NCBI GenBank assembly: GCA_024711005.1
Contig: JANJTQ010000182.1
Coordinates: forward strand, 3,294-67,293
DNA length: 64,000 nt
DNA from: Opitutaceae bacterium
GTDB taxonomy: Bacteria > Verrucomicrobiota > Verrucomicrobiia > Opitutales > Opitutaceae
Direction of reading: 5' to 3'
Below, in pieces: positions 2 through 56,073 of the stretch (its first letter is position 1; each line of letters starts with the position of its first letter). The notes beneath the pieces are model-generated. The model saw only the letters and a list, made by a program, of their open reading frames with translations, had not been told where the DNA came from and did not search any database. Made by a program: the position numbers and the translations under genes.

Positions 2-3000
2 ATCGATCACACCCATCCCGATCTCGCGGCCAACATGTGGACCAATCCCGGCGAAATCGCCGGCAACAACATCGATGACGACGGCAACGGTTATGTGGAC
101 GACGTGCGCGGATGGGACTTTGTGAACGACGACAATAATCCCATGGACGACAACCGCCATGGCACCCACGTCGCCGGAACCATCGGAGGCGTTGGAGGCA
201 ATTCGCTTGGGGTCGTCGGGGTGAACTGGCAGGTCAGTCTCGTTGGACTCAAGTTCCTCTCCGGAAGCGGCTCCGGAACCCACTCCGATGCGGTGGAAGC
301 CGTCGCCTACGCCACTACGCTCGGCCTCGAACTCACCTCCAATTCCTGGGGCGGCGGAGGCTACTCCCAAGCCCTTTACGACGCCATCGCTGACGCCAAC
401 ACCGCCGGTCGCCTCTTCATCGCCGCCGCCGGGAACTCCTCCCGCAACACCGACACATCGCCCAATTACCCGTCCGGCTACAACCTCCCGAACATCATTG
501 CGGTCGCGGCGACCGATCACGCCGATCAACTCGCCTACTTTTCAAACTATGGAGCATCGACGGTCGATCTGGCCGCTCCTGGCGTTAACACGCTCAGCAC
601 GACACCCGGGGGAACTTACCAGAGCCTCAGCGGCACTTCCATGGCGACCCCACATGTGGCCGGAGCCGCCGCCCTCCTTTGGGCCCACCGCCCGTCTTTG
701 ACCGCAACCGACATCAAATCGGCCCTGCTGGTTTCGGTGGACACAAAAGCCCACCTCTTGACCAAAACGGTCTCGGGGGGACGGCTCAACGTCCACTCCG
801 CTCTCCTTTCCTTGGAAAATCTCCTCGTTTCTCCCAACTCCGGCTGGTCGGTCTCCGTTCCATCGGAAGGCCCCATTCCCTCGACCGGCGCTGCTTACAC
901 GCTACGGAATCTGTCTGACTCGGCCCTCGCATGGACCGCCACGGTCGATGTGCCTTGGGCGCAGCTGACCGTCGCCTCAGGGGTGGTCCAGCCCAATGGC
1001 ACCGCCACCACCACCGTTTCCCTTAATGCGGCCGCTGTGCAGAACCTGCCGACAGGCACCCATTCCGGTAAATTGCGAATCACCGATGTTGCCAGCGGAC
1101 TTATCCACGTCCGTCCGCTCTCTCTGAATATCACGCCTCCGGCAGTCTTCACCTTCGATCTGTCCTCCGATCCAGGTTGGACACGAACCGGTCAATGGGC
1201 ATTCGGCAAGCCCTCCGGGTTGGGTGGTGGTGCTTATGGCAATCCCGATCCCGCGTCGGGATACACAGGGAATAACGTCCTCGGGGTAAACCTGATGGGC
1301 AATTACTCTACCACGCCCGGCGGCCCCCACACCTTGACGGCCGGCCCCTTTAATTTCACCGGATACGCAGCGACCCGTCTCCAATTCCGTCGCTGGCTCA
1401 ATAGCGATTATGAGCCCTACGTATCGGCCAAAGTTGAACTCTCCACCAACGGCACCACTTGGCAGACCCTTTGGGCCAATGGATCAACGTTCGTCACCGA
1501 GTCCGCCTGGAGTCTTCAAGACATCGATTTGGCGGCTTACGCGGACAACAAGCCGTCGGTTTCGATCCGCTGGTCTTACACGATCAACGGCGGCGCCTGG
1601 CCGCTTTCCGGGTGGAACATCGACGACATTGTTATTTTGGGCGCCCCGCCCCAAACCCTCCGCTTCGATGCGGTCGGACCGCTCAACGAGGGAGCCGGTT
1701 CATCGAGTGCCACGCTCAATATCAAACCCGCACCGGCCGAGCCGCTCACCATCCAGTTCACCAGCGGAACGCCGGCCACCGTCGCTTCCCCCGCGTCGAT
1801 CATCGTTCCCGCCGGAGTCTCCTCCGTTGTCGTCCCCCTCTCCATTCTCGACAACACGGCGCTCGATGGCACCCGTACCGTTCTGATCTCTCCGTCCGCT
1901 CCGGGTTACAGCGCCGCACCCCTGTCGCTTACGATCCACGATAACGAGACCGCCACACTGACACTTGAATTGCCTGCGGTAGCGACCGAAGGCTCCACCG
2001 CCGTCGGACGCGTGTCCGTCGACACCGCGCCGACGGGCCCGATCACGGTGACATTGACATCGGATCTTGCCGACGCAGCCACCGTCCCTCCGACCGTCAC
2101 CATCCCAACCGGCGCCACGAGTGCCGATTTCACCCTCTCTTTCCCCGACAACACGAGGATCGAGAACTCTCGCGACGCCACGATCGACGCCAGCGTCACC
2201 GGCTGGATCGGCGCACAAGAAACCGTGTCGGTCGCCGACAATGACCTTCGCGCACTTTCCCTCAGCCTCGTTGGTGTTCTCGCCGAAGGCCGCGGCACGG
2301 TGACCGATGGCGGCACGCTGGCGCTCAGCGGCACGTTAACCACGCCCCTTACCGTCACTCTGGTCAGCTCTGCTCCGGACCAACTCTCTGTCGCGGCCTC
2401 GGTGGTCGTTCCCGCCGGCGCGACCTCCGTCAAGTTCCCGATTTCCCTGCCCGACGACGCGAATCTGGATGGAGCCCAGACAGTCACACTCACCGCCTCG
2501 GAAGCCACTTTTGCATCCGGAGAGACCACCGCGTCAGTGGCGGACAACGATCCCGCCTCGTTTGCCTTCGACACGATCCCTTCGCCGCAATACGTGAACC
2601 AAGCATTCTCGGCGCGGATCGTTGCTCTTGATATCAACGGCGCACCCGCCCTCGGGTTCACCGGTGCGGCCAACCTCAGCGGCACGATCGACGCCACGCC
2701 ATCGTCGCTGCAACCTTCGCAGACCAACGCGTTCGTCGCAGGCGAATGGACCGGTGCCATCACGACTCTGGCCGCGGGTGAAAACTGGACGTTACAGGCC
2801 ACCTACGGCTCGGTCTCCGGTGCATCCAACGCGTTCACCGTGCGCGTGCCCGTGGTGCAAATCGTCAACCTGGCCAACAACGACATCGTCTACGACGCCG
2901 GCACGAATCGCCTCTACGCCAGCACGCCTTCCGGCACCATCGTGCCGATCGACCCGGCGACGGGCGCCCTCGATCCGGCCATCACCATCGCCACCACCCC

Positions 3001-6000
3001 CGCCACCCTGCTCGCCCGCGCCACCGACGGCAGCCGCCTCTGGGTCGCGCACGATGCCAACGCGCAAATCATTCCGGTTTCCCTTCCTGATCTGACGGTG
3101 GGCGCGAGTTTCAACCTCGGCACGGGAAGCTACGGCCAGACTCGAGCCGAAGACATCGTCGCTCTCCCCGGCAGTCCCGACAGCCTGGCTGTTGCCCGCT
3201 ACCGCTCTGGCGTCTCCCCCCGCCACGATGGCGTCAGCGTTTACGTTAACGGTAGTCGACTCACCTCATCGACCCCCAATCATACCGGCAGCAACTCCAT
3301 CGAACCTGGCTCCGCTCCAGGCCGGATTTTCGGTTATAACAACGAGAGCACGGAGTTCGGATCCCGACGCCTTCAGGTGTCGGAAACCGGCATCACCAAT
3401 CTCGATGTCAGATCGGAAATCGCGACTGGCTTCGGTATAACCATCCACGCAAGCGACGATATCGTCGCAGCCAGCAGCGGCCGTATCTACGATGGTGAAT
3501 CCTATCGTATCCTCGCGTCGCTCCCCTATTCCGGACTCGTCCGCCCCGACGCCACCGCCAAGCGCATCTACCTGCTCTCCGACCAAGGCGGCGGTGTGCG
3601 CCGGTTGCGTTCCTACGATACCGACCGTTTCGCCGAAATCGGATCAATCAACGTCTCCGGAGTCTCGGGCACGCCCGGCACCTTGGTCCGCTGGGGCGAA
3701 GCCGGACTGGCCTTCCGCACCCCCACCCAAATTTTCATTCTCAACACCGTCGTCGTCCCCACAGCCGACTCCGCCAACCTTCAAGTCACCCAACTCGCCA
3801 CCCCAACATCTCCCGTGGTCGGAGCGCCGATCAATTATCTGGTCTCCGTACGCAATCTCGGAGGCGGTGATGCCGTTTCCGTGGTGCTCACCGACACCCT
3901 TCCCGCAGGATCAACGTTGGTCGAAGCCGTTGCCAGCCAGGGCTCGGTTGATTCCTCCGTTAGCGGACAGGTCAGCGCCAACATCGGCACGATTGCGGCC
4001 GGCGAGGAAGCCACCCTGCGCCTGCGACTCAGCCTCGCGTCCCCCGGGACCGTCACCCACACCGCCATCGCAACCGCCACCACCGGCGATCCCGACACGT
4101 CCAACAACCAGTCGGTCTCCACCCTCACCGCCTCCGCCCCCGGCACACTCTCCCTGCGACGGCTGTCCATCGGGGCACGTGACATCGCCTATGACAACAT
4201 CACGGATCGCCTGATGGTGACGACGAGCAACACCGCTTCGACGCCCAACTCACTGCTCCGCATCGACCCGGTCACACTCGCCCCGTATTCGGCCGATTAT
4301 CTCGGCGACAATCCGGGCCGACTCAAACTCACCAACGACGGACAATATGCCTATGCCATCCTGAACGGCACATTCGGTCTGGCCCGCGCCCCCATCGTGG
4401 CCGGCACGTCCCCTTTCCTCAATTTCCCCGTCGGTCACACGGGATCGACCTATGGGCTGATGCAAGCATACGATATCGTCCCCGTAAACGGACGTCCCGA
4501 AGCCTTGGCCGTGGCTCGCGACCAAGCGTCCGGCACCGTGGCCATCTATGAAAACGGGATTCAATTAAGCACATCAACAGCCTACTACAACGCAACATCC
4601 GTGCTGGTCGATAGTCCCACTGCCCAGCGTATATATGGCTATAATTCCAACAATACCGGCTTCGATTTTTATCAGCTCAACGTGCTCGCCAATGGCGTAA
4701 GCACGGGAGCCACGAAACAGGACCTTATCGAGTCGTTTAGCGTCAACCGGCTAAAACGCGCCGGAAATCTCATCTATACGAACAACGGCCGCATCATCGA
4801 TCCCGAAGCTCTCACACTCGTCGCCAACTTGGCCATCTCCGGCCCGGTAGAGCCCTCCTTCGACGACGATGTCTTCTACATCCTCGAAGGCTCCACCCTT
4901 CGCGCCTACGACCTCGTCACCCGCCAGCCCCTCGGCACCCTCGCGCTCGGCACCCTCGATGGCACACCCACCAACCTCGTCCGCTGCGGCGGCCGCCATC
5001 TCGCCTTCACCACCAGCACCGGACAGCTTTACGTGCTCGATGCTCCCTCGGTTGTCCCTCCTCCTCCGCTCCGCGTCGTCCTGCCGGCCCGCCTGACTGA
5101 AGGTGTCGGAACCGTCCCCGGTGTTGGCCAGGTGGAAATTCTCCGACCTTCCGACACCGACATCAGCTTCCAGCTTACCACGTCGGCCCCCGACGTGCTT
5201 GATGTCACCCGTAACCTCATCATCCCCGCCGGCCAAACCTCGGTAACCTTCGACGTCACCGTGACCGACAACGCCGGCCTCAACGGCACGCGCTCCGTGG
5301 TCATCACGCCCGCGACCACCGCCACCTATACGCCGAAACCAGCCACCGTGGAGGTCGACGATGACGAGACCGGCACGCTCTCCCTCTCGCTTCCCGACAT
5401 CTTGCTCGAAGGCTCCGGCGTAATCGGCGACATCGCCACCCTCACGCTTTCCGCGGCTCCCATCGCACCCGTGTCCATCGCCCTCTCCTCCTCCGATACC
5501 ACCGAGGTGCAGGTGCCAGCCACGGTCATCCTGCCCGCCGGAGAAACGTCCGTCACGTTCGCCGTCACGTTGCCCGATGACGATCTGCTGGACGGTCCCC
5601 AAGCCGCCACGATCACCGCCGCCGTTCCAGGCTACACAGCCGCCGTCATCGAGGCCCAGGTGCTGGATAATGAGGGAACCACGATCACGCTCACCCTGCC
5701 GGTGTCGGCCACGGAGGGATCTTACGTCTACGCGAATGTCACTCTGCCTGGCAAAGCCGTCTCGCCCGTCACCGTGACTCTCAGTTCCAGTGACACCACC
5801 GAACTCGGAAACGCCACCGGCACCATTCCCGCCGGGCAAAGCTCCGGCAGCTTCTACGTCGGCGGCGTGAATGATACTCTCACCGACGGTGCACAAACCG
5901 TCACGCTCACCGCTTCCTCACCGGGCTTCACCAGTGGCAGCGCCACCATCTCCATCACCGATAACGATGCCGCCACCGCATCCTGGTCCACGATCATCGG

Positions 6001-8488
6001 CTCTCAAACCGCCGGCACCGCGTTCAACGCCACGCTCACTTTTAAGACGATCGATGGACAAACCGCCACGGGCTACAACGGCAACGTGCCCGTCACCGCT
6101 CTGAATGCCGACGGCGCCGCCACGCTGAAAAATGCCCCCATCAATGTCTATGTTTCAGGTGGCGTCAGCACCGCCAGCTACACCGTGCTCACCGCCGGAA
6201 CCGACACCCGGTTGCGTGCCCAGCCCGTCAACTTTGCCGCGGTTGACAGCAATCTCTTCAAGGTAAACCCAGGCCCCGTTGCGGCTCTTCAGGTTGGAAC
6301 CATCCCGGCAACCCAGATCACGGCACAACCGACGACCCTCGCTCTCACCGCGCAGGACGCCTACGGCAACACCGTTACTTCGTTTACCGGCTCGGCCTCG
6401 CTGAGCATCGGCGGCGCGTTCCGCCAGGCAGGCTCGGGTACCCAATCATCCAAGTATCCGCTCCACCCCTACCACGACGAGGATCGCACCCAGATCATCT
6501 ACCTCGCGTCCGAACTCGGAGGAGCCGCCAAGCTGACGGGCGTCGCGCTCAAGGTGACCGCGCCGCTCAATGTCGCGCTGAACAATTGGACGATCCGCAT
6601 CAAGCCCACCGCTGCCGCCAGCTACGCCACCTCCGCCTCCTGGCAAGGATCGGGCTGGACCATCGTCCATCAAGGCACACCGCTGCCTTCAAGTCCCGGC
6701 TGGATCGAGTTCCCGTTCGCAACGCCCTACGACTACAACGGCACCGACAACCTGCTGGTCGATTTCAGCATCAAGAACTCCGGACACCCCAGCACCTACG
6801 GGATGGTCGAGGCAACGACCTCGGCCGACTATCGTGTTATGCACGGTTATGCCGATGGCGCCTACGGCGACCCCCTGAATTGGAACGGTGCCTCCCCGTC
6901 CTATGAACTCAGCACCGTGCGTCCGAACCTTCGTTTCCGCACACAACCGGTTGGCGGCGTCGTCACTCCGGGCAACACGGGCGCCTTCACCGCCGGCGCG
7001 TGGACCGGCCCCGTCACCTTCCTGCAACCGGGCGTCGGCGTTTCCATTCTGGCCACGTCGGGCGTCATCGCTGGGAACTCCAACACACTCGATATCCAAC
7101 TCGCGGCCCCCGTGCTCGCCCCTGAGCCTGCCATCACCGGCGGCACCGCCAATACCCTCGCGTGGACTCCGCCCTCGTTTATCACCGGCACCGCAACCAC
7201 TCAGGTGCAAGCCTCCCCGGAAGACACCTTCGCAGCCCCCGTCACCAGCCCTTGGCTCGACGCAACCACCCACACCGTCTCTCCCTTGACCGAGACCACC
7301 TGGCACTACCGCGCCCGCACCCGGCTGACCGTGCCCTTCACGGACACATGGGAGCAAACCAGCCTGGCAGACTTCTCCACCGGCACGCTCTCGCAGACCT
7401 CCGTGCAAACGAGCCCCGGCAACGTCGTCCTCGCGCTCAACGGCTCCACCTATTTCACGACGGGATCCATTACTTCTCCGCTTATCCAGCCCGCCAATCG
7501 CCAAAGCTGGGGCAAACTCGCCTACGACATCTCCACCCCTAACGGCACCACCCTCACCATCGATGTGCTCGACGGCATCGGCAACCTCCTCGCAGCGGAC
7601 GTGAGTTCAGACATCGATCTCAACCAGTTGCCCGGCGTCAGCGGCCAAATAAACCTGAAGCTCCGCGCCAATCTGCAAACGACCAGCCCATTCCTGACAC
7701 CGAGCCTGCGCGCTTGGACTCTCGGCTGGATCACCCCGCAAAGCCCCGCCATTTACGACAGTGCATGGAGCACCATCCTCACCTCGCTCCAAGACGCCAC
7801 CGCACCGGCGCTTGCGGTCACCTCCTCCGCCAACACCACCACCGCCGCCTACACGCTCACCGGTACAGCCGCGGATGCCAACGGCATTGTCTCCGTGTCC
7901 ATCAACGGACTCACCGCCACCACCGCCGACGGTTACGTAACATGGAACCAGGCCGTGACCCTGCATCCTGGAGCCAATGAATTCTCGCTCGTTGCCTCCG
8001 ATCCGGCCGCTCCCGCCAACACCATCACCACGCCCTTCACCGTCACCTACACACCTCCCGACGTCGATACCGACGGCATGCCCGATGCCTGGGAAGTTGC
8101 GCACGGCCTGGATCCGGAATCCCCCGCCAGCATCAACGGAAGCCTGGGCGACCCCGACAAAGACGGCTTACCCAATCTTCTCGAATACGCCTTCAATCTG
8201 AATCCTTCGCAGCCCGACGCCACGCCGCCCTACTCCACCCAAACCGTCGAGGATCCCGACAGCGGCCACCTCGCGCTCGGGTTCACCTACCGCCGCCTCA
8301 TTCATCCGGGCACGCTCACCTACAGCCTGCTGATTTCATCCAACTTGACCACATGGACCGCGCCCGTTCCCACGCCGGAAGAACTCTCCGTCACGCCCAA
8401 CCCCGACGGTCTCACCGAAACCGTGGTCGTGCGCATCCCGCTGAGTTCCGAACCGGCGTTTGTGCGACTCCAAATCGCAAATCCTTAA
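2..8488 (+). CDS. Giant secreted S8 (subtilisin-like) serine peptidase with Calx-beta/Ig-like repeats, two beta-propeller modules, a DUF11-like domain and a C-terminal D-x-D-x-D-G repeat domain; 5'-truncated by the window edge
   Basis: The frame is open from base 2 (IDHTHPDLAANMW), so the catalytic Asp motif lies just upstream. HGTHVAG, AAGN and GTSMATPHVAG motifs are present. Repeated 'VIPAGxTSVTF' Calx-beta-like units; C-terminal DVDTDGMPDAWE...DPDKDGLPNLLEYA. Confidence 0.92.
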   Translation: MDHTHPDLAANMWTNPGEIAGNNIDDDGNGYVDDVRGWDFVNDDNNPMDDNRHGTHVAGTIGGVGGNSLGVVGVNWQVSLVGLKFLSGSGSGTHSDAVEAVAYATTLGLELTSNSWGGGGYSQALYDAIADANTAGRLFIAAAGNSSRNTDTSPNYPSGYNLPNIIAVAATDHADQLAYFSNYGASTVDLAAPGVNTLSTTPGGTYQSLSGTSMATPHVAGAAALLWAHRPSLTATDIKSALLVSVDTKAHLLTKTVSGGRLNVHSALLSLENLLVSPNSGWSVSVPSEGPIPSTGAAYTLRNLSDSALAWTATVDVPWAQLTVASGVVQPNGTATTTVSLNAAAVQNLPTGTHSGKLRITDVASGLIHVRPLSLNITPPAVFTFDLSSDPGWTRTGQWAFGKPSGLGGGAYGNPDPASGYTGNNVLGVNLMGNYSTTPGGPHTLTAGPFNFTGYAATRLQFRRWLNSDYEPYVSAKVELSTNGTTWQTLWANGSTFVTESAWSLQDIDLAAYADNKPSVSIRWSYTINGGAWPLSGWNIDDIVILGAPPQTLRFDAVGPLNEGAGSSSATLNIKPAPAEPLTIQFTSGTPATVASPASIIVPAGVSSVVVPLSILDNTALDGTRTVLISPSAPGYSAAPLSLTIHDNETATLTLELPAVATEGSTAVGRVSVDTAPTGPITVTLTSDLADAATVPPTVTIPTGATSADFTLSFPDNTRIENSRDATIDASVTGWIGAQETVSVADNDLRALSLSLVGVLAEGRGTVTDGGTLALSGTLTTPLTVTLVSSAPDQLSVAASVVVPAGATSVKFPISLPDDANLDGAQTVTLTASEATFASGETTASVADNDPASFAFDTIPSPQYVNQAFSARIVALDINGAPALGFTGAANLSGTIDATPSSLQPSQTNAFVAGEWTGAITTLAAGENWTLQATYGSVSGASNAFTVRVPVVQIVNLANNDIVYDAGTNRLYASTPSGTIVPIDPATGALDPAITIATTPATLLARATDGSRLWVAHDANAQIIPVSLPDLTVGASFNLGTGSYGQTRAEDIVALPGSPDSLAVARYRSGVSPRHDGVSVYVNGSRLTSSTPNHTGSNSIEPGSAPGRIFGYNNESTEFGSRRLQVSETGITNLDVRSEIATGFGITIHASDDIVAASSGRIYDGESYRILASLPYSGLVRPDATAKRIYLLSDQGGGVRRLRSYDTDRFAEIGSINVSGVSGTPGTLVRWGEAGLAFRTPTQIFILNTVVVPTADSANLQVTQLATPTSPVVGAPINYLVSVRNLGGGDAVSVVLTDTLPAGSTLVEAVASQGSVDSSVSGQVSANIGTIAAGEEATLRLRLSLASPGTVTHTAIATATTGDPDTSNNQSVSTLTASAPGTLSLRRLSIGARDIAYDNITDRLMVTTSNTASTPNSLLRIDPVTLAPYSADYLGDNPGRLKLTNDGQYAYAILNGTFGLARAPIVAGTSPFLNFPVGHTGSTYGLMQAYDIVPVNGRPEALAVARDQASGTVAIYENGIQLSTSTAYYNATSVLVDSPTAQRIYGYNSNNTGFDFYQLNVLANGVSTGATKQDLIESFSVNRLKRAGNLIYTNNGRIIDPEALTLVANLAISGPVEPSFDDDVFYILEGSTLRAYDLVTRQPLGTLALGTLDGTPTNLVRCGGRHLAFTTSTGQLYVLDAPSVVPPPPLRVVLPARLTEGVGTVPGVGQVEILRPSDTDISFQLTTSAPDVLDVTRNLIIPAGQTSVTFDVTVTDNAGLNGTRSVVITPATTATYTPKPATVEVDDDETGTLSLSLPDILLEGSGVIGDIATLTLSAAPIAPVSIALSSSDTTEVQVPATVILPAGETSVTFAVTLPDDDLLDGPQAATITAAVPGYTAAVIEAQVLDNEGTTITLTLPVSATEGSYVYANVTLPGKAVSPVTVTLSSSDTTELGNATGTIPAGQSSGSFYVGGVNDTLTDGAQTVTLTASSPGFTSGSATISITDNDAATASWSTIIGSQTAGTAFNATLTFKTIDGQTATGYNGNVPVTALNADGAATLKNAPINVYVSGGVSTASYTVLTAGTDTRLRAQPVNFAAVDSNLFKVNPGPVAALQVGTIPATQITAQPTTLALTAQDAYGNTVTSFTGSASLSIGGAFRQAGSGTQSSKYPLHPYHDEDRTQIIYLASELGGAAKLTGVALKVTAPLNVALNNWTIRIKPTAAASYATSASWQGSGWTIVHQGTPLPSSPGWIEFPFATPYDYNGTDNLLVDFSIKNSGHPSTYGMVEATTSADYRVMHGYADGAYGDPLNWNGASPSYELSTVRPNLRFRTQPVGGVVTPGNTGAFTAGAWTGPVTFLQPGVGVSILATSGVIAGNSNTLDIQLAAPVLAPEPAITGGTANTLAWTPPSFITGTATTQVQASPEDTFAAPVTSPWLDATTHTVSPLTETTWHYRARTRLTVPFTDTWEQTSLADFSTGTLSQTSVQTSPGNVVLALNGSTYFTTGSITSPLIQPANRQSWGKLAYDISTPNGTTLTIDVLDGIGNLLAADVSSDIDLNQLPGVSGQINLKLRANLQTTSPFLTPSLRAWTLGWITPQSPAIYDSAWSTILTSLQDATAPALAVTSSANTTTAAYTLTGTAADANGIVSVSINGLTATTADGYVTWNQAVTLHPGANEFSLVASDPAAPANTITTPFTVTYTPPDVDTDGMPDAWEVAHGLDPESPASINGSLGDPDKDGLPNLLEYAFNLNPSQPDATPPYSTQTVEDPDSGHLALGFTYRRLIHPGTLTYSLLISSNLTTWTAPVPTPEELSVTPNPDGLTETVVVRIPLSSEPAFVRLQIANP

Positions 8489-8526
8489 GCCCCCACGCCC
8501 CGATCCTGCAGGTCCCACAACCCAAC

Positions 8527-8547
8527 TTGTCACTTATTAAGTTACAA
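8527..8547. repeat. AT-rich palindromic repeat (family A, TTGTCACTTAWTAAGTGACAA), slightly degenerate copy
   Basis: ttgtcacttattaagttacaa, one mismatch to the other four copies. Confidence 0.8.
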
Positions 8548-8582
8548 AATGACGTCGCAACGAGACGGAGCGCCCAAGCAGG

Positions 8583-8605
8583 TTTGTCACTTAATAAGTG
8601 ACAAA
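8583..8605. repeat. Palindromic repeat family A; overlaps the stop codon of the methyltransferase gene
   Basis: tttgtcacttaataagtgacaaa; on the minus strand it reads FVTY* with TAA at 8591-8593. Confidence 0.9.
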
Positions 8606-9376
8606 ATCGGCTTGTTTCACCCGCCTCTCCAAAACCAGCGTCGTGTCGCTGCCTCTGAAGAACTCGTAGTTGACCGCCACCACTTGCGAACGAATGCCGG
8701 CTGCCGCGAGGTCGGTGCGCAGACGTTCGAGTTCCGCGTACGGTCGCCCATCCGGTCCGCATACCGGATGGATCCGCACCTCGTCCCGGCTCACCCGCAC
8801 CAGTTCGCGACACGCCGCGAGGTGAAACGCATAATCAAACAGCCGTTCGTAAATGAAGAGCAGGTGCGCACACAGCACCACGTCGAAACTCCCATCGGCA
8901 AATGGAAGCCGCGGCAACGCACCGCCCACATAACGGTTGTCCAAAAACCCCGCCTCATAGTCCGCTAAAAACTCCTCCGCCGCAGCACGTCGATCGCGCT
9001 CGGCTTCGTCAATCGAACTGAACGACTTCAGCCGAAAGATCTCCGGCTTCGCCCGCATCTGCGCCACCGTCCGCACATAATCAAGCCGCACATACGCCGC
9101 CAAGGTTTCCGCCCGACATCCATAAAGCGGATCAACCGCGGTCGCCCGGATGCCCAGCCGCGTGGCCGCCGACGTGAAGGACGATGGTCCCGCCGCCACA
9201 TCAAGCACCGAGCGCCCGGGCAACGCTTCAAGATCGAGCGGGAAAAACTGTGTATACTCGGCCAGCGAACGGCCAAAAAATGCGACGGAGGATAATTCAA
9301 ACGAAGACAAAACGCCGGACGCGGCGGAGGTAAAAACCGAAGAAGAAACGGATGAGGGATTCGAAAAAGAGTTCAT
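8591..9376 (-). CDS. Class I SAM-dependent methyltransferase, function unknown
   Basis: SAM motif I 'VLDVAAGPSSF', 'LPRLPFADGSFDVVLCAHLLF', N-terminal 'FFGRSLAEY'. Start placed at ATG 9376, downstream of the leader terminator. Confidence 0.85.
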   Translation of the reverse strand: MNSFSNPSSVSSSVFTSAASGVLSSFELSSVAFFGRSLAEYTQFFPLDLEALPGRSVLDVAAGPSSFTSAATRLGIRATAVDPLYGCRAETLAAYVRLDYVRTVAQMRAKPEIFRLKSFSSIDEAERDRRAAAEEFLADYEAGFLDNRYVGGALPRLPFADGSFDVVLCAHLLFIYERLFDYAFHLAACRELVRVSRDEVRIHPVCGPDGRPYAELERLRTDLAAAGIRSQVVAVNYEFFRGSDTTLVLERRVKQADFVTY

Positions 9377-9419
9377 GACGAAGTGGTGATGGAGTTGTGG
9401 ATACACGCCAAAAGGCATG

Positions 9420-9447
9420 AAAAAACCCGGCTCGATTGAGTCGGGTT
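9420..9447 (-). terminator. Intrinsic terminator in the 5' leader of the methyltransferase (attenuator terminator)
   Basis: Minus strand AACCCGACUC-AAUC-GAGCCGGGUU (one mismatch) running into a 6-U tract, about 45 nt before the ATG. Confidence 0.8.
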
Positions 9448-9487
9448 CGGCGGGTTGGAAAACGATGCGGGCGAACAAACGCGCGCG

Positions 9488-9568
9488 TCACCATCGCCCA
9501 CCCGCGCTCCGCCACCACGCACCCAAGCGGGCAAGTGGGGTCAACAAGGACTGCGGGCGGGACGTCAT
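9488..9568 (-). CDS. Putative Trp leader peptide (26 aa) MTSRPQSLLTPLARLGAWWRSAGGRW
   Basis: Read manually. ATG at 9568, tandem UGG UGG plus a final UGG before UGA at 9490-9488, about 40 nt upstream of the terminator. Confidence 0.7.
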   Translation of the reverse strand: MTSRPQSLLTPLARLGAWWRSAGGRW

Positions 9569-9671
9569 GCCGTCACCGTTGTCTCCGCCGGGCCGTTCTC
9601 GCAACCCCGAAAATGCGACGGCTGCTCCCCACGTCGGGGGCAACGTGCCGACATCAACCGTTCCTCACGCC

Positions 9672-10580
9672 TCAAAACAATCGCTCGGGATACTCTCCGC
9701 GCGCCACCAACTCCGCCAGCGCCGCCTGCACGCGGGGCTTGTCCTCGCGATACGTCACGCCGAACCAGTTCGCACTCGTCGGGCGCACCTCGACCGTCAC
9801 CAGCCCTTGCGCAACTTGTTCCGATACCGCCTCGGGCAGATAAAACTCCGACTTCAACTCCCCGCCGCGCGCCTCAAGAAAGCTTTCGAACTGCTCGTTC
9901 AGCCCCGTGAAAAACACCGGCGTAAACGCCCAGCAGTTCATCGAGACGGTTTCCTCGCCCGTATACTTTTTCCCCGCCTCCGGACCGACCTCCTCCCGAC
10001 GAATGCCCGTGTGCTCGACCACCTTCTCCAGGCAGCCATCCCCGCCCGTGGCGCAGACGCCGCGCGACACCGCGCCGTTTTCCGAAAGCGTATTCGAAAG
10101 CCGATACCCAATCATCGCGAAGTTCGGCGCGATATCCTCGTCCGTTCGACCCGCCGCTTCCTCCCGCAAAAACGCCGCAAGCTGCCGGAATGCGTCACGC
10201 CCGAAAAAGTCATCCGCTCCGATCACCGCGAAGGGTTCCATGATCGCATCGCGCGCACACCACACCGCGTGCCCCGTCCCCCAGGGTTTTTCACGACCCG
10301 CCGACACCGCGAAACCCGGCGGCAATGCGTCGAGCGACTGGAACACGAAATCCACCTTCACCTTGTCCGCATACTTCGCGGCAACCTGCGTCCGAAACGC
10401 CTCCTCGAACTCTTTCCGGATAACAAACACCACGCGGCCGAACCCTTCGCGGATCGCGTCGAACACCGCATAATCCAAAATCGTTTCACCCGAAGGACCA
10501 ACCGGGTCGACCTGCTTCAGTCCGCCATAGCGGGAACCCATGCCGGCGGCCAAAATAAGGAGAGTGGGAGCGGTACTCAT
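9672..10580 (-). CDS. Sugar-phosphate nucleotidyltransferase family protein
   Basis: LILAAGMGSRYGGLKQVDPVGPSGETILDY; 'KPWGTGHAV'. Confidence 0.88.
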   Translation of the reverse strand: MSTAPTLLILAAGMGSRYGGLKQVDPVGPSGETILDYAVFDAIREGFGRVVFVIRKEFEEAFRTQVAAKYADKVKVDFVFQSLDALPPGFAVSAGREKPWGTGHAVWCARDAIMEPFAVIGADDFFGRDAFRQLAAFLREEAAGRTDEDIAPNFAMIGYRLSNTLSENGAVSRGVCATGGDGCLEKVVEHTGIRREEVGPEAGKKYTGEETVSMNCWAFTPVFFTGLNEQFESFLEARGGELKSEFYLPEAVSEQVAQGLVTVEVRPTSANWFGVTYREDKPRVQAALAELVARGEYPERLF

Positions 10581-10659
10581 GATCCCGGAATGCAAACCGG
10601 ATCGATGAACCTCGCGCGATGAAATACTCGCACTTCAGCCCGGAAACCTAACTCCGCCC

Positions 10660-11967
10660 CTACCTCCCCACCAACACGTAAACATACCCCGCCGTCATCA
10701 GCGCGAAGAAGATCAACCCCGACCAGCTCAACACCCGCATCATCCACCCCGGCTGGTCGCCCGCCGGCACGTTGTCGCCCGTCATCACCTTGTAGTTGAT
10801 CCACGCCAGCACCGGCGAAGTCAGGAACGATACCACCGCCGCGAACGTCAACAGTTCCAGCAGATTCTTCACGAAGAACAGCACGACCACCGCCGCCGAC
10901 ACCGTCGCCACGACCATCCACACCCGGTGCATCATCTTGAACCGGTCCTCCGGCAACACCTTCAACAGCACGCAGCACGCCGCCAGCGAGCGCGGATAAC
11001 CGTCCACGCAGGTCAACGTAGTGCTGAACATCGTGATGAACGCCGCGGACAAAATCAGCGGCCGCGACCATTCGCCGATCGTCGCCGTGTAGAGCGTCAC
11101 CAGTTGATTCGAGAATCCGATGCCGCTCTCCGAAAATGCCTGGCCCGAACCAAACATCACCAACGCGCCCAGCGCCACAAACAACACCGCCAGCACCACC
11201 GCCGCGACGTAGCCCAGATAAAAATCGATCGAGGTCTCCCGCACCGTGGCCATGTGCCCGGTTTGCTCCTTGCGACTGAACATCCACAACGACGACCACG
11301 CCGACAAATCCACCGGCGCCGGCATCCATCCCATCAGACTGATCAAAAATGCGAACGACGCCCAGGTCCACGGACTCGGCGCCACGAAGTCCGCCGCGAT
11401 CTCCGGCCGGTTCGGCACCGCCAGCGCCACCGCCACCGCCGTGCTCACGGCCAGCGCGATGATCACCACCTTGGCCATGCCATCGAGCAGTTTGTAGTGC
11501 CCCAGCAACAACAGCGCCGCACACCCCCCGATCAGCCCGACCGTCAGATGCGCGATCGACAGCCCGGTCAATCCGTAACCCGCGAGAAGCGCTCCGCTCA
11601 ACATGCCCACGCCCGCGATGTTGATCGTGCCGGTGAGAATATTGATCAGCAGGAAAATCCACACGTACCTCCGTCCATGCCGCCGATAACCGGCCAGCAA
11701 ACTCTCACCCGTGGCCGCCGTGTAACGCTGGCCGAAGAGGAAGAACGGGTACTTGAACAAATTGGTCAGCAAGATCAGCCCGACGAGGCTCCAGCCAAAG
11801 TCCGCGCCCGCCCGCGTCGACCACACCAGATGCGAGCCGCCGACCGCCGCGCACGAAACCAAAATCCCCGGCCCAAGCGCCTTCCACAGGTTGGCTCTCC
11901 GCTCGGCGGCGGAAAGCGGTTGCGAGGCGGGGCCGGTCGGAGCGACGGATGAAAATAAATCGGACAT
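10660..11967 (-). CDS. Nramp-family-like divalent metal transporter
   Basis: 'LGPGILVSCAAVGGSHLV...AGADFGWSL' and about 11 hydrophobic segments. Confidence 0.8.
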   Translation of the reverse strand: MSDLFSSVAPTGPASQPLSAAERRANLWKALGPGILVSCAAVGGSHLVWSTRAGADFGWSLVGLILLTNLFKYPFFLFGQRYTAATGESLLAGYRRHGRRYVWIFLLINILTGTINIAGVGMLSGALLAGYGLTGLSIAHLTVGLIGGCAALLLLGHYKLLDGMAKVVIIALAVSTAVAVALAVPNRPEIAADFVAPSPWTWASFAFLISLMGWMPAPVDLSAWSSLWMFSRKEQTGHMATVRETSIDFYLGYVAAVVLAVLFVALGALVMFGSGQAFSESGIGFSNQLVTLYTATIGEWSRPLILSAAFITMFSTTLTCVDGYPRSLAACCVLLKVLPEDRFKMMHRVWMVVATVSAAVVVLFFVKNLLELLTFAAVVSFLTSPVLAWINYKVMTGDNVPAGDQPGWMMRVLSWSGLIFFALMTAGYVYVLVGR

Positions 11968-12388: not shown

Positions 12389-13978
12389 ATGCTCTCACCG
12401 ACGAGAAGCCTGCTCACCGTAGGCGCCAGTTTTTTGACCACTCGCACCGCTCGCAAACTGCGCCGCGCAGTCGACGCCGTGCCTGCGCAGAAACGCACCT
12501 TCACCAGCCTGTGCACGCGACTCGCCGAAACCGCTTACGGACGCACCCACGGTATCACGCCGGATATCACTTACGCCCAATTTCAAGCGCGTGTCCCCCT
12601 GCAAACCCACGAGGGGTTCGCTCCGTTCATTGAGCGCATGCAACAAGGGGAGACGGATGTGCTCTGGCCCGGACGCTGCAATTTTTATGCGGTCTCCTCG
12701 GGCACCAACGACGCGCACCCCAAATACCTGCCCGTCACCGACGACCTGCTGGAGCACTTCCGTCATGCCGGCCGCGAGTCCCTGCTCTATTATACCGCCC
12801 GTGTGGGCCATGCCGGGGTGTTTCGCGGCAAACAACTCCTCCTTGGTGGCTGCACCACCCTAAGCCGCCTCGGCGAATCCAAGGCCGCGGCCTATGCCGG
12901 ACCCATCAGCGGCATCACCGCCCTCAACCTGCCGGGATGGGTCGAAAAACACCTCTACGAACCCGGACCCGAAGTCGCACGGATTGCCGATTGGTCCACC
13001 CGCATCACGGCCATCGCCGAGCGTACTTGGCACAGTGACATCACCCTGATTGCCGGGATGCCCACGTGGGTGATCATGCTCGCCGAGGCGATCAAAGCCC
13101 GCGCCTCCCACGGCCACCCCGTCCCCGCCAACCTCCAAAGCGTATGGCCCAACTTGGAATGCTTTGTGCACGGCGGCGTGCCCATCGGCCCCTACGCCGA
13201 CGAACTGCGCACACTCATCGGCCCCAAGGTCAACTTCCACGAGGTCTATCCCGCATCCGAAGGCTTCATCGCCACGCAGGATACCGAGTCCGTTTTTGGC
13301 CTGCGCCTGATGACGGATGCCGGCCTGTTTTTCGAATTCCTGCCCATGCAGGTCCACGATGAAGGCAAGCTTGCCCAACTCGGCCAGCGCACCGTGACCC
13401 TCGAAGGGGTTCAAGTCGGGGTGGACTATGCCTTGGTGCTCACCACACCGGCCGGGCTCACCCGTTATGTGATCGGCGATGTCGTGCGCTTCCTCTCGAC
13501 CGATATTCCCCGCCTCGTTTACCTCGGCCGCACCGCCCTTCAATTGAACACCTTTGGCGAGCGAGTGATCGAAAAAGAGCTCACCGACGCCCTCGTCGCC
13601 GTGTGCCAGCGCCATGGCTGGACCACCGTCAACTTCCATGCGGCCCCTTTCGTGAACGACAGCACCGCCGGCCTGCGTCGCGGCTCCCACGAGTGGTGGG
13701 TCGAACTCAAGCCCTATACCGCCGAGACTCCCACCGGGCCGGTCATTGCCCTCGAGTTGGACGTCGAGCTCAAACGCCTTAACAAGGTCTACGAAGCCAA
13801 GCGTAAGGAGGGCGGACTCGACGCCCCGCTCGTGAAGCTCGTCATGCCCGGTGTATTCGAACACTGGATGCGCGCCAAAGACAAATGGGGCGACCCGCAC
13901 AAGATGCCCCGCTGCCGCAGCGACCGCCGGATCGCCGACGAACTCGCCCAAGTCGCACGCTTCTCCTCGGAGGCCTGA
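12389..13978 (+). CDS. GH3 auxin-responsive promoter family acyl-adenylate/amido synthetase-like protein
   Basis: 'AVSSGTN...KYLP', 'EVYPASEGF', 'RYVIGDVVRF', C-terminal 'KMPRC'. Confidence 0.88.
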   Translation: MLSPTRSLLTVGASFLTTRTARKLRRAVDAVPAQKRTFTSLCTRLAETAYGRTHGITPDITYAQFQARVPLQTHEGFAPFIERMQQGETDVLWPGRCNFYAVSSGTNDAHPKYLPVTDDLLEHFRHAGRESLLYYTARVGHAGVFRGKQLLLGGCTTLSRLGESKAAAYAGPISGITALNLPGWVEKHLYEPGPEVARIADWSTRITAIAERTWHSDITLIAGMPTWVIMLAEAIKARASHGHPVPANLQSVWPNLECFVHGGVPIGPYADELRTLIGPKVNFHEVYPASEGFIATQDTESVFGLRLMTDAGLFFEFLPMQVHDEGKLAQLGQRTVTLEGVQVGVDYALVLTTPAGLTRYVIGDVVRFLSTDIPRLVYLGRTALQLNTFGERVIEKELTDALVAVCQRHGWTTVNFHAAPFVNDSTAGLRRGSHEWWVELKPYTAETPTGPVIALELDVELKRLNKVYEAKRKEGGLDAPLVKLVMPGVFEHWMRAKDKWGDPHKMPRCRSDRRIADELAQVARFSSEA

Positions 13979-29893: not shown

Positions 29894-29918
29894 GTTTGTC
29901 ACTTATTAAGTGACAAAC
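29894..29918. repeat. Palindromic repeat family A
   Basis: gtttgtcacttattaagtgacaaac. Confidence 0.9.
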
Positions 29919-40836: not shown

Positions 40837-40871
40837 ATCCAGTTTGTCACTTATTAAGTGACAAACTGGAT
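40837..40871. repeat. Palindromic repeat family A, longest copy
   Basis: atccagtttgtcactta-t-taagtgacaaactggat, perfect 17-bp arms. Confidence 0.92.
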
Positions 40872-54918: not shown

Positions 54919-56073
54919 GTGTCCTCCACGCTTAACAGCACCTCCGCACTCGTCACCGGCGGCACCGGCTTCCTCGGTCGCCGCATCGTCGAGCGACTGC
55001 TTGCGCAAGGCCGTCCCGTCACCGTGCTCGGCCGCACACCCGCGCCCGACCTGGAAGCGCGCGGCGTGCGCTTTATCCGCGCCTCACTCGACGACACCCA
55101 GGCCGTGCAGGCCGCCTGCCGCGGGATAGCAACGGTGTTTCACGTCGCCGCAAAAGTAGGGGTATGGGGGCGCTACGAGGATTTTTATCGCACCAACGTC
55201 CTCGGCACACGCGCACTGCTCGCCGGTTGCCGCGAGCACGGCGTCACCCGTTTCGTCCACACGAGCACGCCCAGCGTAGTGTATAACGGATACGACCTTG
55301 CCGGTGCCGACGAAAGCCTCCCGCTCACCTCCCGTTGCCCCAGCCCGTATCCGTTGACCAAGGCCCTCGCCGAACGCGATGTGCTCGCCGCCAACACGGA
55401 GGCTCTGCGCACGGTGGCCCTTCGTCCCCATCTCATCTGGGGTGCGGGTGATCCGCATCTCGTTCCCCGGGTCCTCGCCCGTGCGCGCGCCGGCCGGCTC
55501 CGCATCATCGGCAAAGGACAAAACCGGGTCGACATGGTCCACGTCGAAAACGCCGTCGATGCCCACCTCGCCGCCGAACTCGCCCTCCTCGACCCCACCG
55601 GACATCGCCCATCCCAACCCGATCCCGCTTGTCACTTAATAAGTGACAAAACTCCGGAAGAGCTTGGATACAAAAAAGTAGATAGGGACAACCCGGGGCC
55701 ATGCGCGGCCGGAAAGGCTTATTTCATCACCAATGGCGAGCCCGTTGTGCTGTGGGATTGGATCAACGGCCTGCTCGTCGGGCTGGGTGAACCGCCGGTA
55801 ACCAAACGTATTCCGCTGGGCGCGGCCTCGGTGATCGGCGCTCTGTGCGAAGCCGCCTGGCGCGTGCAGCCCCTCAAAGGCGAACCACCCATGACCCGCT
55901 TCATCGCCGCCGAACTCGCAAAGGACCACTGGTTCTCCATCGACGCCGCCCGGCGCGATTTAAACTACGTTCCGCGCATCAGCATGGCGGAGGGCACGGC
56001 GGAGCTGATCGCGTCATTGAAGCGGCCTGGTTCCTCCGACCTGAGCACGGCGTCCGCGGGATTCTCAGTGTAA
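54919..56073 (+). CDS. oleD: OleD-like NAD-dependent 3-beta-HSD/epimerase family reductase, with an in-frame repeat insertion
   Basis: TGGTGFLG, HTSTPSV, YPLTK, LRPHLIWG, AGKAYFITNGEP, 'PPMTRF'; directly after oleC. Confidence 0.85.
   Translation: MSSTLNSTSALVTGGTGFLGRRIVERLLAQGRPVTVLGRTPAPDLEARGVRFIRASLDDTQAVQAACRGIATVFHVAAKVGVWGRYEDFYRTNVLGTRALLAGCREHGVTRFVHTSTPSVVYNGYDLAGADESLPLTSRCPSPYPLTKALAERDVLAANTEALRTVALRPHLIWGAGDPHLVPRVLARARAGRLRIIGKGQNRVDMVHVENAVDAHLAAELALLDPTGHRPSQPDPACHLISDKTPEELGYKKVDRDNPGPCAAGKAYFITNGEPVVLWDWINGLLVGLGEPPVTKRIPLGAASVIGALCEAAWRVQPLKGEPPMTRFIAAELAKDHWFSIDAARRDLNYVPRISMAEGTAELIASLKRPGSSDLSTASAGFSV
55629..55649. repeat. Palindromic repeat family A inside the oleD coding sequence
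   Basis: ttgtcacttaataagtgacaa, translated as CHLISDK. Confidence 0.9.

Follow-up and report, generated by a model that had tools for sequence, protein, structure and literature searches.

Leader-peptide attenuators are textbook regulators of amino acid biosynthesis operons and have been studied mainly in Proteobacteria, Firmicutes and Actinobacteria. In the archetype, trpL of the Escherichia coli type (Rfam family Trp_leader), a short leader open reading frame (ORF) contains Trp codons, the antiterminator shares a strand with an intrinsic terminator, the RNA alone favours the terminator and the position of the ribosome decides which fold is adopted. To our knowledge, almost no cis-regulatory RNAs have been characterised in the Verrucomicrobiota. 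Here we analyse a 64,000-nucleotide stretch of DNA (the window) from an Opitutaceae bacterium of this phylum (contig JANJTQ010000182.1 of assembly GCA_024711005.1, positions 3,294 to 67,293 of the forward strand), in which a leader containing Trp codons lies upstream of a gene encoding an orphan class I S-adenosylmethionine (SAM)-dependent methyltransferase, MT. This leader is very probably a ribosome-dependent (leader-peptide) transcription attenuator dedicated to MT. A preliminary description of the window had placed it among attenuators of the trpL kind, and the assignment holds in its essentials, with an upstream ORF (uORF) of the translated type that carries Trp codons, competition between an antiterminator and an intrinsic terminator, and the gene downstream. 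The anatomy of trpL is not matched exactly, however: the leader controls an orphan methyltransferase rather than trp biosynthesis genes, it matches no Rfam model, and its uORF is apparently leaderless and runs through the whole 5' strand of the antiterminator, which is formed by the 3' part of the uORF itself, to a stop codon whose position is not conserved.

Three other systems offer further points of comparison. TnaC responds to free Trp, sensed by way of its nascent chain while the ribosome is at the stop codon, and prevents Rho-dependent termination. The leader described here would resemble tnaC in having a leader peptide with an essential Trp and in regulating, by Trp status, a gene outside trp biosynthesis, but its terminator is intrinsic, the distance from the Trp codon to the stop codon ranges from 7 to 19 codons, and its peptide shows no selection at the amino acid level. 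The leaderless polycysteine small ORFs (sORFs) of mycobacteria are cysteine-responsive attenuators that act on translation and not on an intrinsic terminator (Canestrari et al., bioRxiv 10.1101/834739); they contain runs of Cys codons and control genes of Cys metabolism (bioRxiv 10.1101/834739). With these the Opitutaceae leader would share a leaderless sensory sORF as the first cistron, sensing through the codons of one amino acid, a stalled ribosome that remodels the downstream RNA and a peptide that is otherwise unimportant, whereas its invariant Trp codon is a single one, its terminator is clear and the gene that it precedes has no known link to Trp. Finally, induction of the Bacillus subtilis 23S rRNA methyltransferase YxjB (RlmA-II) requires, besides a tylosin-dependent stall, NusG-dependent pausing and relief of a hairpin that sequesters the Shine-Dalgarno sequence (Yakhnin et al. 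2019, PMC6851288). In the yxjB and erm leaders, as proposed here, translation of a leader peptide and a stall prevent termination upstream of a SAM-dependent methyltransferase, but no relation of the Opitutaceae MT to RlmA or Erm could be detected and the conserved feature of its leader is a Trp codon, not an arrest motif. A full-text literature search found no description of this leader or of any leader with Trp codons before a methyltransferase. The class of mechanism, ribosome-mediated attenuation, is thus already known; what would be new is a family-wide Opitutaceae attenuator, apparently leaderless, in which the sensing codon abuts a coding antiterminator strand and a single orphan methyltransferase is controlled.

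Organisation of the leader in the window

On the minus strand, the nucleotidyltransferase gene upstream of MT ends at 9672 and is followed by a gap of 296 nt that holds the leader elements. The features of the locus are as follows.

9599..9604, minus strand: -35-like hexamer TTGCGA (family consensus CTTGC(G/A)C, with an A-tract before it in most relatives)
9576..9581, minus strand: -10-like element CAACGG (family consensus CATCAC), 17 nt past the -35-like element and 7 nt before the ATG of the uORF
9488..9568, minus strand: leader uORF of 26 codons plus TGA, encoding MTSRPQSLLTPLARLGAWWRSAGGRW, with its ATG at 9568-9566 and TGA at 9490-9488
9553..9563, minus strand: tentative candidate for an anti-antiterminator (segment 1), GUCCCGCCCGC, in uORF codons 2-6, paired with strand A in the minimum free energy (MFE) fold of the window
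9512..9517, minus strand: tandem Trp codons UGG UGG, of which the second (9514-9512) is the family-wide invariant anchor codon
9493-9491, minus strand: third TGG of the uORF, in the window sequence
9489..9510, minus strand: predicted 5' strand of the antiterminator (strand A), within the last 8 codons of the uORF
9438..9456, minus strand: predicted 3' strand of the antiterminator (strand B), comprising the flank and the 5' arm of the terminator
9420..9447, minus strand: intrinsic terminator AACCCGACUC / AAUC / GAGCCGGGUU plus U-run (family consensus GAGCCCGACUC-loop-GAGUCGGGCUUUUU, nearly invariant); as DNA, AACCCGACTC at 9447-9438, loop AATC at 9437-9434, GAGCCGGGTT at 9433-9424 and a run of six T at 9425-9420
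9377..9419, minus strand: spacer from the terminator to the MT start codon, pyrimidine-rich and without a Shine-Dalgarno sequence
8591..9376, minus strand: MT, the putatively regulated gene, encoding a class I SAM-dependent methyltransferase of 261 amino acids with no Trp (Pfam Methyltransf_11)

The 26-codon uORF with tandem UGG, the terminator hairpin with six U and the downstream ATG, all of which had been pointed out before, are therefore present in the sequence. The alternative pairings that had been suggested also exist, but the conserved helix is the one between 9510-9489 and 9456-9438; the proposed GGGCGA/UCGCCC pairing can be found in the window and is not that helix. The start of MT is assigned to the ATG at 9376, rather than to the ATG beside the U-run, because orthologs share an N-terminus beginning MN. 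In the window the terminator stem contains one A.C mismatch, on account of which the hairpin was not listed by a simple scan for terminators. A single copy of the hairpin motif CCCGACTC-N-GAGYCGGG is present in the 64-kb window and none in shuffled sequences, and the leader region of the window folds with a z-score of about -2.8 relative to shuffles.

The leader accompanies the methyltransferase gene across the Opitutaceae

For comparison we used 80 species-level genome loci from the Opitutaceae (L001-L080). A leader of about 200 nt lies upstream of MT at all 79 loci that include the region, and the eightieth (L051) ends just upstream of its terminator. The leader ends in the nearly invariant terminator GCC(G/A)AGCCCGACUC-loop-GAGUCGGG(C/U)UUUUU, an 11-bp G+C-rich stem with a U-run that is predicted to terminate transcription. 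The hairpin motif given above for the window is matched exactly at 77 of the 80 loci, once per locus, and the other three carry one-base variants. In relatives with a placed MT start, the spacer that follows the terminator is C/U-rich and measures 24-174 nt, usually 27-90 nt. When metagenomes were scanned with the terminator motif, the matches were mostly due to chance or to unrelated terminators; four true leaders were found among the matches listed, and all four are followed by MT.

The genes upstream of the leader are less constant. The nucleotidyltransferase (NTP-transferase) gene is found there only in the window and in L001-L004, and in 75 further species the leader precedes an MT ortholog with a different upstream gene. 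Since the upstream genes differ while MT stays, and since the leader has its own promoter, the leader belongs to MT and not to the gene upstream. The earlier association of the leader with the methyltransferase is thereby borne out, with MT orthologs at all complete loci and varying genes on the other side.

The same observations bear on a trivial explanation of the locus, namely that the hairpin simply terminates transcription of the nucleotidyltransferase gene upstream and that the ORF with tandem Trp codons is a random open frame in GC-rich DNA. The hairpin does lie only about 225 nt downstream of the stop of that gene at 9672, and long open frames are common in DNA of 62% GC. Nevertheless, the recurrence of the same leader before MT in 75 further species with other upstream genes, the presence of a promoter belonging to the leader, and the conservation of the ORF, the Trp codon and a helix that covaries leave an origin by chance with practically negligible probability. 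An assignment of the hairpin as a terminator of the upstream gene was itself ruled out by the absence of synteny with that gene and by the leader's own promoter.

A search of window positions 8000-11000 against Rfam 15 at E <= 10 returned no relevant family (a spurious microRNA match fell elsewhere), nor did any of 20 related loci contain a match at the gathering score. With 80 sequences and a covarying predicted helix, the leader alignment suffices as the basis of a new cis-regulatory RNA family.

The uORF is maintained as an ORF and contains one invariant Trp codon

An aligned start codon (ATG, GTG or TTG) lies in frame with the conserved UGG in 78 of the 80 leaders. The spacing from start to UGG takes values of 54, 60, 63, 66, 69, 72 and 75 nt, such that every change in length is a multiple of three. 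From the start to eight codons past the UGG, stop codons occur in frame 0 in only 3 of 80 leaders, compared with 71 and 40 of 80 in the other two frames. Judged by these patterns of conservation, the uORF is under selection for being an ORF and would therefore be translated. The predicted peptides have 24-41 residues, are rich in Ala, Arg and Trp (7.5% W) and contain between one and five Trp each.

Conservation at the codon level is concentrated at a single position. The anchor codon specifies W in 80/80 leaders (entropy 0), whereas neighbouring codons have an amino acid entropy of 1.7-2.9 bits. The preliminary description had drawn attention to the tandem Trp codons and to their conservation in orthologous leaders. 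One in-frame UGG is indeed invariant, but the tandem is not: WW occurs in only 26/80 leaders, and where a second W adjoins the anchor (24/80) it lies just upstream. Another frequent UGG, in the context GCU UGG CGA, alternates with CGG and covaries with A/G of the partner strand, and for this reason is regarded as conserved at the RNA level and not as a Trp codon.

Across the leaders, no codon-position periodicity was detected in the variability of the uORF. The ORF would therefore serve to position a ribosome rather than to encode a functional peptide or a sequence-specific arrest peptide, and by the same comparison the peptide sequence itself is unselected, with the sole exception of the invariant Trp. 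The variable distance from this Trp to the stop codon argues, moreover, against TnaC-like arrest at the stop codon. An arrest-peptide reading, considered as the main model, was ruled out by the lack of periodicity together with this variable distance.

The leader has its own promoter and the uORF is probably leaderless

The sequence TTGC is found 35-39 nt upstream of the uORF start in 67/80 leaders and CAT(C/T) is found 13-15 nt upstream of the start codon in 58/80. The family pattern comprises an A-tract, CTTGC(G/A)C about 37 nt and CATCAC about 14 nt upstream, separated by a spacer of about 17 nt, and then 7-8 nt to the ATG or GTG. No Shine-Dalgarno sequence was seen before the uORF in the aligned leaders. 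Because the promoter would leave a 5' untranslated region of only 0-3 nt, devoid of a Shine-Dalgarno sequence, the uORF is probably leaderless, with transcription predicted to start at the start codon or within a few nucleotides of it. As an observation in its own right, the promoter pattern points to initiation without a leader in the Opitutaceae and to an unusual hexamer as their -10-like element.

The 3' end of the uORF supplies one strand of a predicted, covarying antiterminator

The codons that follow the anchor UGG, with the consensus CAC GGG UCG GCU UGG CGA CGA UGG, show complementarity to ACCACCGCCAAGCCCGACUC, a stretch that comprises the terminator's 5' arm and the flank upstream of it. 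When duplexes are calculated for each sequence separately, the free energy of pairing between strands A and B (A:B) is -19.8 kcal/mol for the window and ranges from -16 to -31 kcal/mol over 80/80 leaders. The two strands change together, as seen in the matched variants GGCUUGGCG:CGCCAAGCC, GGCUCGGCG:CGCCGAGCC, GGCUCGACG:CGUCGAGCC, GGCCUGGCG:CGCCAGGCC and GGCUCA:UGAGCC, and a leader's own strands pair better than they do with the strands of other leaders in 69 of 80 cases (p 9e-10). In a gapless mini-alignment, both sides have changed in 5 of 14 pairs, with 28 compensatory cells compared with 8.3 +/- 2.3 after shuffling (0/500 as high), and 75.5% of cells are paired, compared with 27-45% in slid registers. 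Because indels in the raw MAFFT alignment shift the strands out of register, RNAalifold found no more there than the terminator and part of the antiterminator, and it is for this reason that per-sequence duplexes and the gapless mini-alignment were used. The predicted antiterminator is mutually exclusive with the terminator; both are conserved and the antiterminator helix covaries.

Which of the two structures is favoured depends on the part of the RNA that is available for folding. If the upstream part is left out of the nascent RNA, the terminator arm is paired to the 3' end of the uORF (strand A) in 77/80 leaders. In the MFE structure of the full-length leader, by contrast, the terminator is present in 79/80 and favoured by 6.2 kcal/mol on average, and strand A is paired to upstream parts of the uORF. 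Since the terminator state always has the lowest free energy, the switch has to operate kinetically, like that of classical attenuators. Pairing of strand A with upstream uORF sequence is likewise seen in nascent folds, and in the window 9563-9553 pairs well with the antiterminator strand. Over the whole set of leaders, the upstream uORF pairs with strand A (the 1:2 helix of an anti-antiterminator) no better than shuffled sequences do (mean z -0.7), and own versus cross pairing does not differ significantly (p 0.16; 0.09 for the start-codon region).

In contrast to trpL, the strands of the antiterminator are far apart and the 1:2 helix lacks support from covariation. Between the uORF stop and the terminator arm lie 25-67 nt, variable in length and sequence, that form one or two hairpins, and this variability argues against a ligand-binding aptamer. 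An RNA-only switch, either a riboswitch or a protein-binding leader, would have helix A:B close a multi-stem junction (with hairpins P2 and P3) to which a ligand or protein binds, thereby preventing the terminator, and the ORF would be incidental. The helix and its inner hairpins do look like an aptamer with a P1-type closing helix in competition with a terminator, and highly conserved bases, for example GGCGACGAUGG, lie in or near the helix. However, these bases are confined to the uORF and the helix strands, the intervening segment also varies in its number of hairpins and has no conserved junction core, Rfam matches are lacking for the window region at E <= 10 and for the 20 relatives at the gathering score, and the signals of the ORF are too strong for it to be incidental. 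We therefore regard a switch made of RNA alone as highly improbable.

Leader RNA in metatranscriptomes

RNA evidence for the leader comes from unstranded assembled contigs in three metatranscriptomes and covers two species. In the metatranscriptome from the same study as the DNA, a single contig of 290 nt is found at the locus (9612..9323), comprising the leader and the first 53 nt of MT. Two unrelated metatranscriptomes, from soil and root, hold leader-only contigs of another species, corresponding to L018 positions 2758-2980 and 2798-2953, where the U-run ends at 2919 and MT starts near 2974. A search of RNA runs for a third species found no contigs. Leader RNA seems to be more abundant than MT mRNA, as attenuation predicts. 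The terminated leader may accumulate as a stable small RNA, as has been reported for the leader rnTrpL of rhizobia (bioRxiv 10.1101/606483). Neighbouring coding regions are absent from the metatranscriptome assemblies that hold the leader contig.

MT is an orphan methyltransferase that is nearly devoid of Trp

Orthologs of MT are 54-89% identical across the Opitutaceae, and the closest named species is Rariglobus hedericola. Pfam assigns only Methyltransf_11/25, no NCBIfam model reached its cutoff, and sequence and profile searches of the PDB found no relative. The AlphaFold model of MT has a pLDDT of 78, and its Foldseek matches in the PDB are generic class I Rossmann methyltransferases only (TM <= 0.44). 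Matches to the NNMT/PNMT family (TM about 0.38) were set aside as too poor to establish a link with indole amines. None of the Pfam, NCBIfam, PDB sequence and Foldseek searches detected a signature of Erm, RlmA or Cfr.

The composition of the protein is unusual in one respect. Among 120 MT homologs, 83 contain no Trp at all, and overall they have 0.14% W alongside 7.2% Phe and 3.4% Tyr; the likely genes of the window average 1.16% W. So low a Trp content fits a protein that is needed when Trp is scarce.

Ribosome position at the invariant Trp codon and the direction of the switch

Pairing in strand A begins 4-12 nt downstream of the anchor UGG (mode 6 nt, 43/80 leaders). The uORF always spans the whole of strand A, and its stop codon lies at the end of the strand in roughly 33/80 leaders and 8-35 nt beyond it in the rest. 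We carried out a ribosome-mask scan, in which mRNA as far as +11 from the P site was treated as covered by the ribosome. With the A site eight to one codons before the anchor, the terminator arm was sequestered in 64-75% of leaders; with the anchor itself in the A site the proportion was 44%, and from the next codon on it was about 1%. A ribosome can thus wait no further along than the invariant Trp codon if the antiterminator is still to form.

A mechanism that combines these features can be proposed as follows. Transcription from the conserved promoter would begin at the uORF start codon or immediately beside it. Of the 24-41 codons of the uORF, the last eight or so (more in about half of the leaders) would constitute the 5' strand of a long-range antiterminator, the partner being the 5' arm and flank of the intrinsic terminator 25-67 nt past the uORF stop. 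The RNA alone would prefer the terminator state. A ribosome running through the uORF would unwind or cover the antiterminator strand, so that the terminator forms and MT is off. A ribosome waiting for Trp-tRNA with the invariant UGG in its A site, in contrast, would be located just 5' of strand A and would leave this strand free to capture the terminator arm, whereupon RNA polymerase would read through into MT. That the Trp codon is the sensor seems to us reasonably likely. For the complete statement, including its direction, in which limitation for Trp turns MT on, we consider the case evenly balanced.

The direction could also be the reverse, either with a ribosome waiting at the Trp codon or with one arrested through the Trp-containing nascent chain and a small-molecule effector in the style of TnaC or SpeFL, such that the stall masks the first bases of strand A and leads to termination, and MT is made when Trp is plentiful. 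Such a logic would suit an enzyme that consumes Trp or indole, and the geometry leaves room for it, since the anchor is only about 6 nt from strand A, a ribosome with W in its A site leaves the terminator arm sequestered in just 44% of leaders, the arm would be freed if the ribosome footprint were slightly larger, and the terminator state is always the thermodynamic minimum. On the other hand, the distance from W to the stop varies between 7 and 19 codons and the stop may coincide with the end of strand A or fall 8-35 nt past it, which argues against a TnaC-like arrest at the stop codon; there is no amino acid conservation around W, the extra W codons found in 24/80 leaders lie upstream of the anchor, on the permissive side, and a Trp-free protein suits Trp shortage better than plenty. 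Taken together, these features make a reversed switch quite improbable.

The mask scan also lets the antiterminator form when the ribosome stalls at any codon upstream of W, as would be expected of a general sensor of translation stress or antibiotics in which any slowing of the ribosome, whether by an antibiotic that targets it or by low capacity for translation, frees strand A and induces an MT that modifies rRNA, tRNA or a drug. The motif +x+ is a macrolide arrest motif, and many leaders have K-R-A-R before W, which resembles it. However, the K-R motif is missing in the clade of the window and in several others, the Trp is the only invariant residue and codon, and the peptide shows none of the amino acid-level selection that would be expected of a drug-dependent arrest peptide. 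There is precedent for leader-peptide antitermination upstream of the 23S rRNA methyltransferase YxjB (PMC6851288), but MT lacks the signatures of Erm, RlmA and Cfr, and a stress sensor would leave both the depletion of Trp in MT and the invariance of the Trp codon unexplained. We judge a sensor of this general type to be unlikely.

Several observations weigh against the attenuator in the form proposed above, in which Trp limitation is sensed at the anchor codon. A single Trp codon is shared by all leaders, and in five of them it is the sole W, making this a weaker sensor than those of the classical systems; the remaining common UGGs are located within helices, and one of them is constrained as RNA. 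The anchor is about 6 nt from strand A, compared with about 15 nt in trpL, and at this position the mask scan is borderline (44%). Because the anchor is so close and the scan borderline, the direction of the switch hangs on a tolerance of +/- one codon, and this is the weakest link in the argument. A stall anywhere upstream of W would have the same outcome, and hence the switch need not be specific for Trp. The anti-antiterminator has no support from covariation, although the 1:2 pairing is energetically possible. The leader contigs extend 34-97 nt past the U-run, and the window contig reaches 44 nt upstream of the uORF, further than the predicted start of transcription. Lastly, the depletion of Trp in MT is inherited by descent and other proteins of the window are Trp-poor too, while a Trp-rich gene of the antibiotic biosynthesis monooxygenase (ABM) type follows MT in at least 17 relatives.

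A broader proposal, that the leader is a genuine sensor of Trp supply and the Trp-free MT a previously undescribed effector of a Trp-starvation response in Verrucomicrobiota, is more speculative, and we consider it possible but doubtful. If it were true, MT might modify tRNA-Trp, the ribosome or a metabolite derived from Trp or indole, and the leader would be the first amino acid attenuator wired to a modification enzyme instead of to a gene for biosynthesis, transport or a tRNA synthetase, and would open a direct route to the function of an orphan enzyme family. Should the Trp codon act as the sensor, the way in which MT is regulated would place this family, for which there is no other functional clue, in a physiological context, namely shortage of Trp.

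Neighbouring genes and repeated palindromes

At the related loci, several genes recur in the neighbourhood of MT. The ABM-type gene lies within about 20 nt after MT at 17 or more loci, a pyrimidine-nucleoside phosphorylase gene is found 3' of MT on the same strand at 33 loci of L001-L080, and genes for an ABC-2 permease and a coiled-coil protein are often located upstream in this set. In the window MT stands alone, and none of the ABM, phosphorylase, permease and coiled-coil genes adjoins it.

The window MT has a C-terminal extension (ending in RRVKQADFVTY; 8591-8620, minus strand) that most orthologs lack. Its last codons and stop lie inside a palindrome at 8584-8604, as if insertion of an element had replaced the original stop. 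This 21-bp AT-rich palindrome, TTGTCACTTATTAAGTGACAA, is present in five copies in the 62% GC window, where none is expected.

8527-8547: palindrome copy
8584-8604: palindrome copy
29896-29916: palindrome copy
40844-40864: palindrome copy
55629-55649: palindrome copy

Two of the copies flank or overlap the stop codon of MT. In DNA run X1, extra short contigs and a depth about 4-fold higher were found at 8573-8605. By its appearance, the palindrome could be a dispersed element of the REP type, a terminator that works in both directions or an operator site.

GH3 acyl-acid amido synthetases are known from the conjugation of auxin in plants. A gene encoding a complete GH3-family protein of this type, with N, M and C domains, is located 3 kb from MT (12389-13978, plus strand); its position beside MT is not conserved at other loci. 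Convergent with MT is an ORF of 2817 amino acids (35-8488, plus strand) that has a subtilase-like start followed by long repetitive regions, and its product is probably a giant surface or secreted protein.

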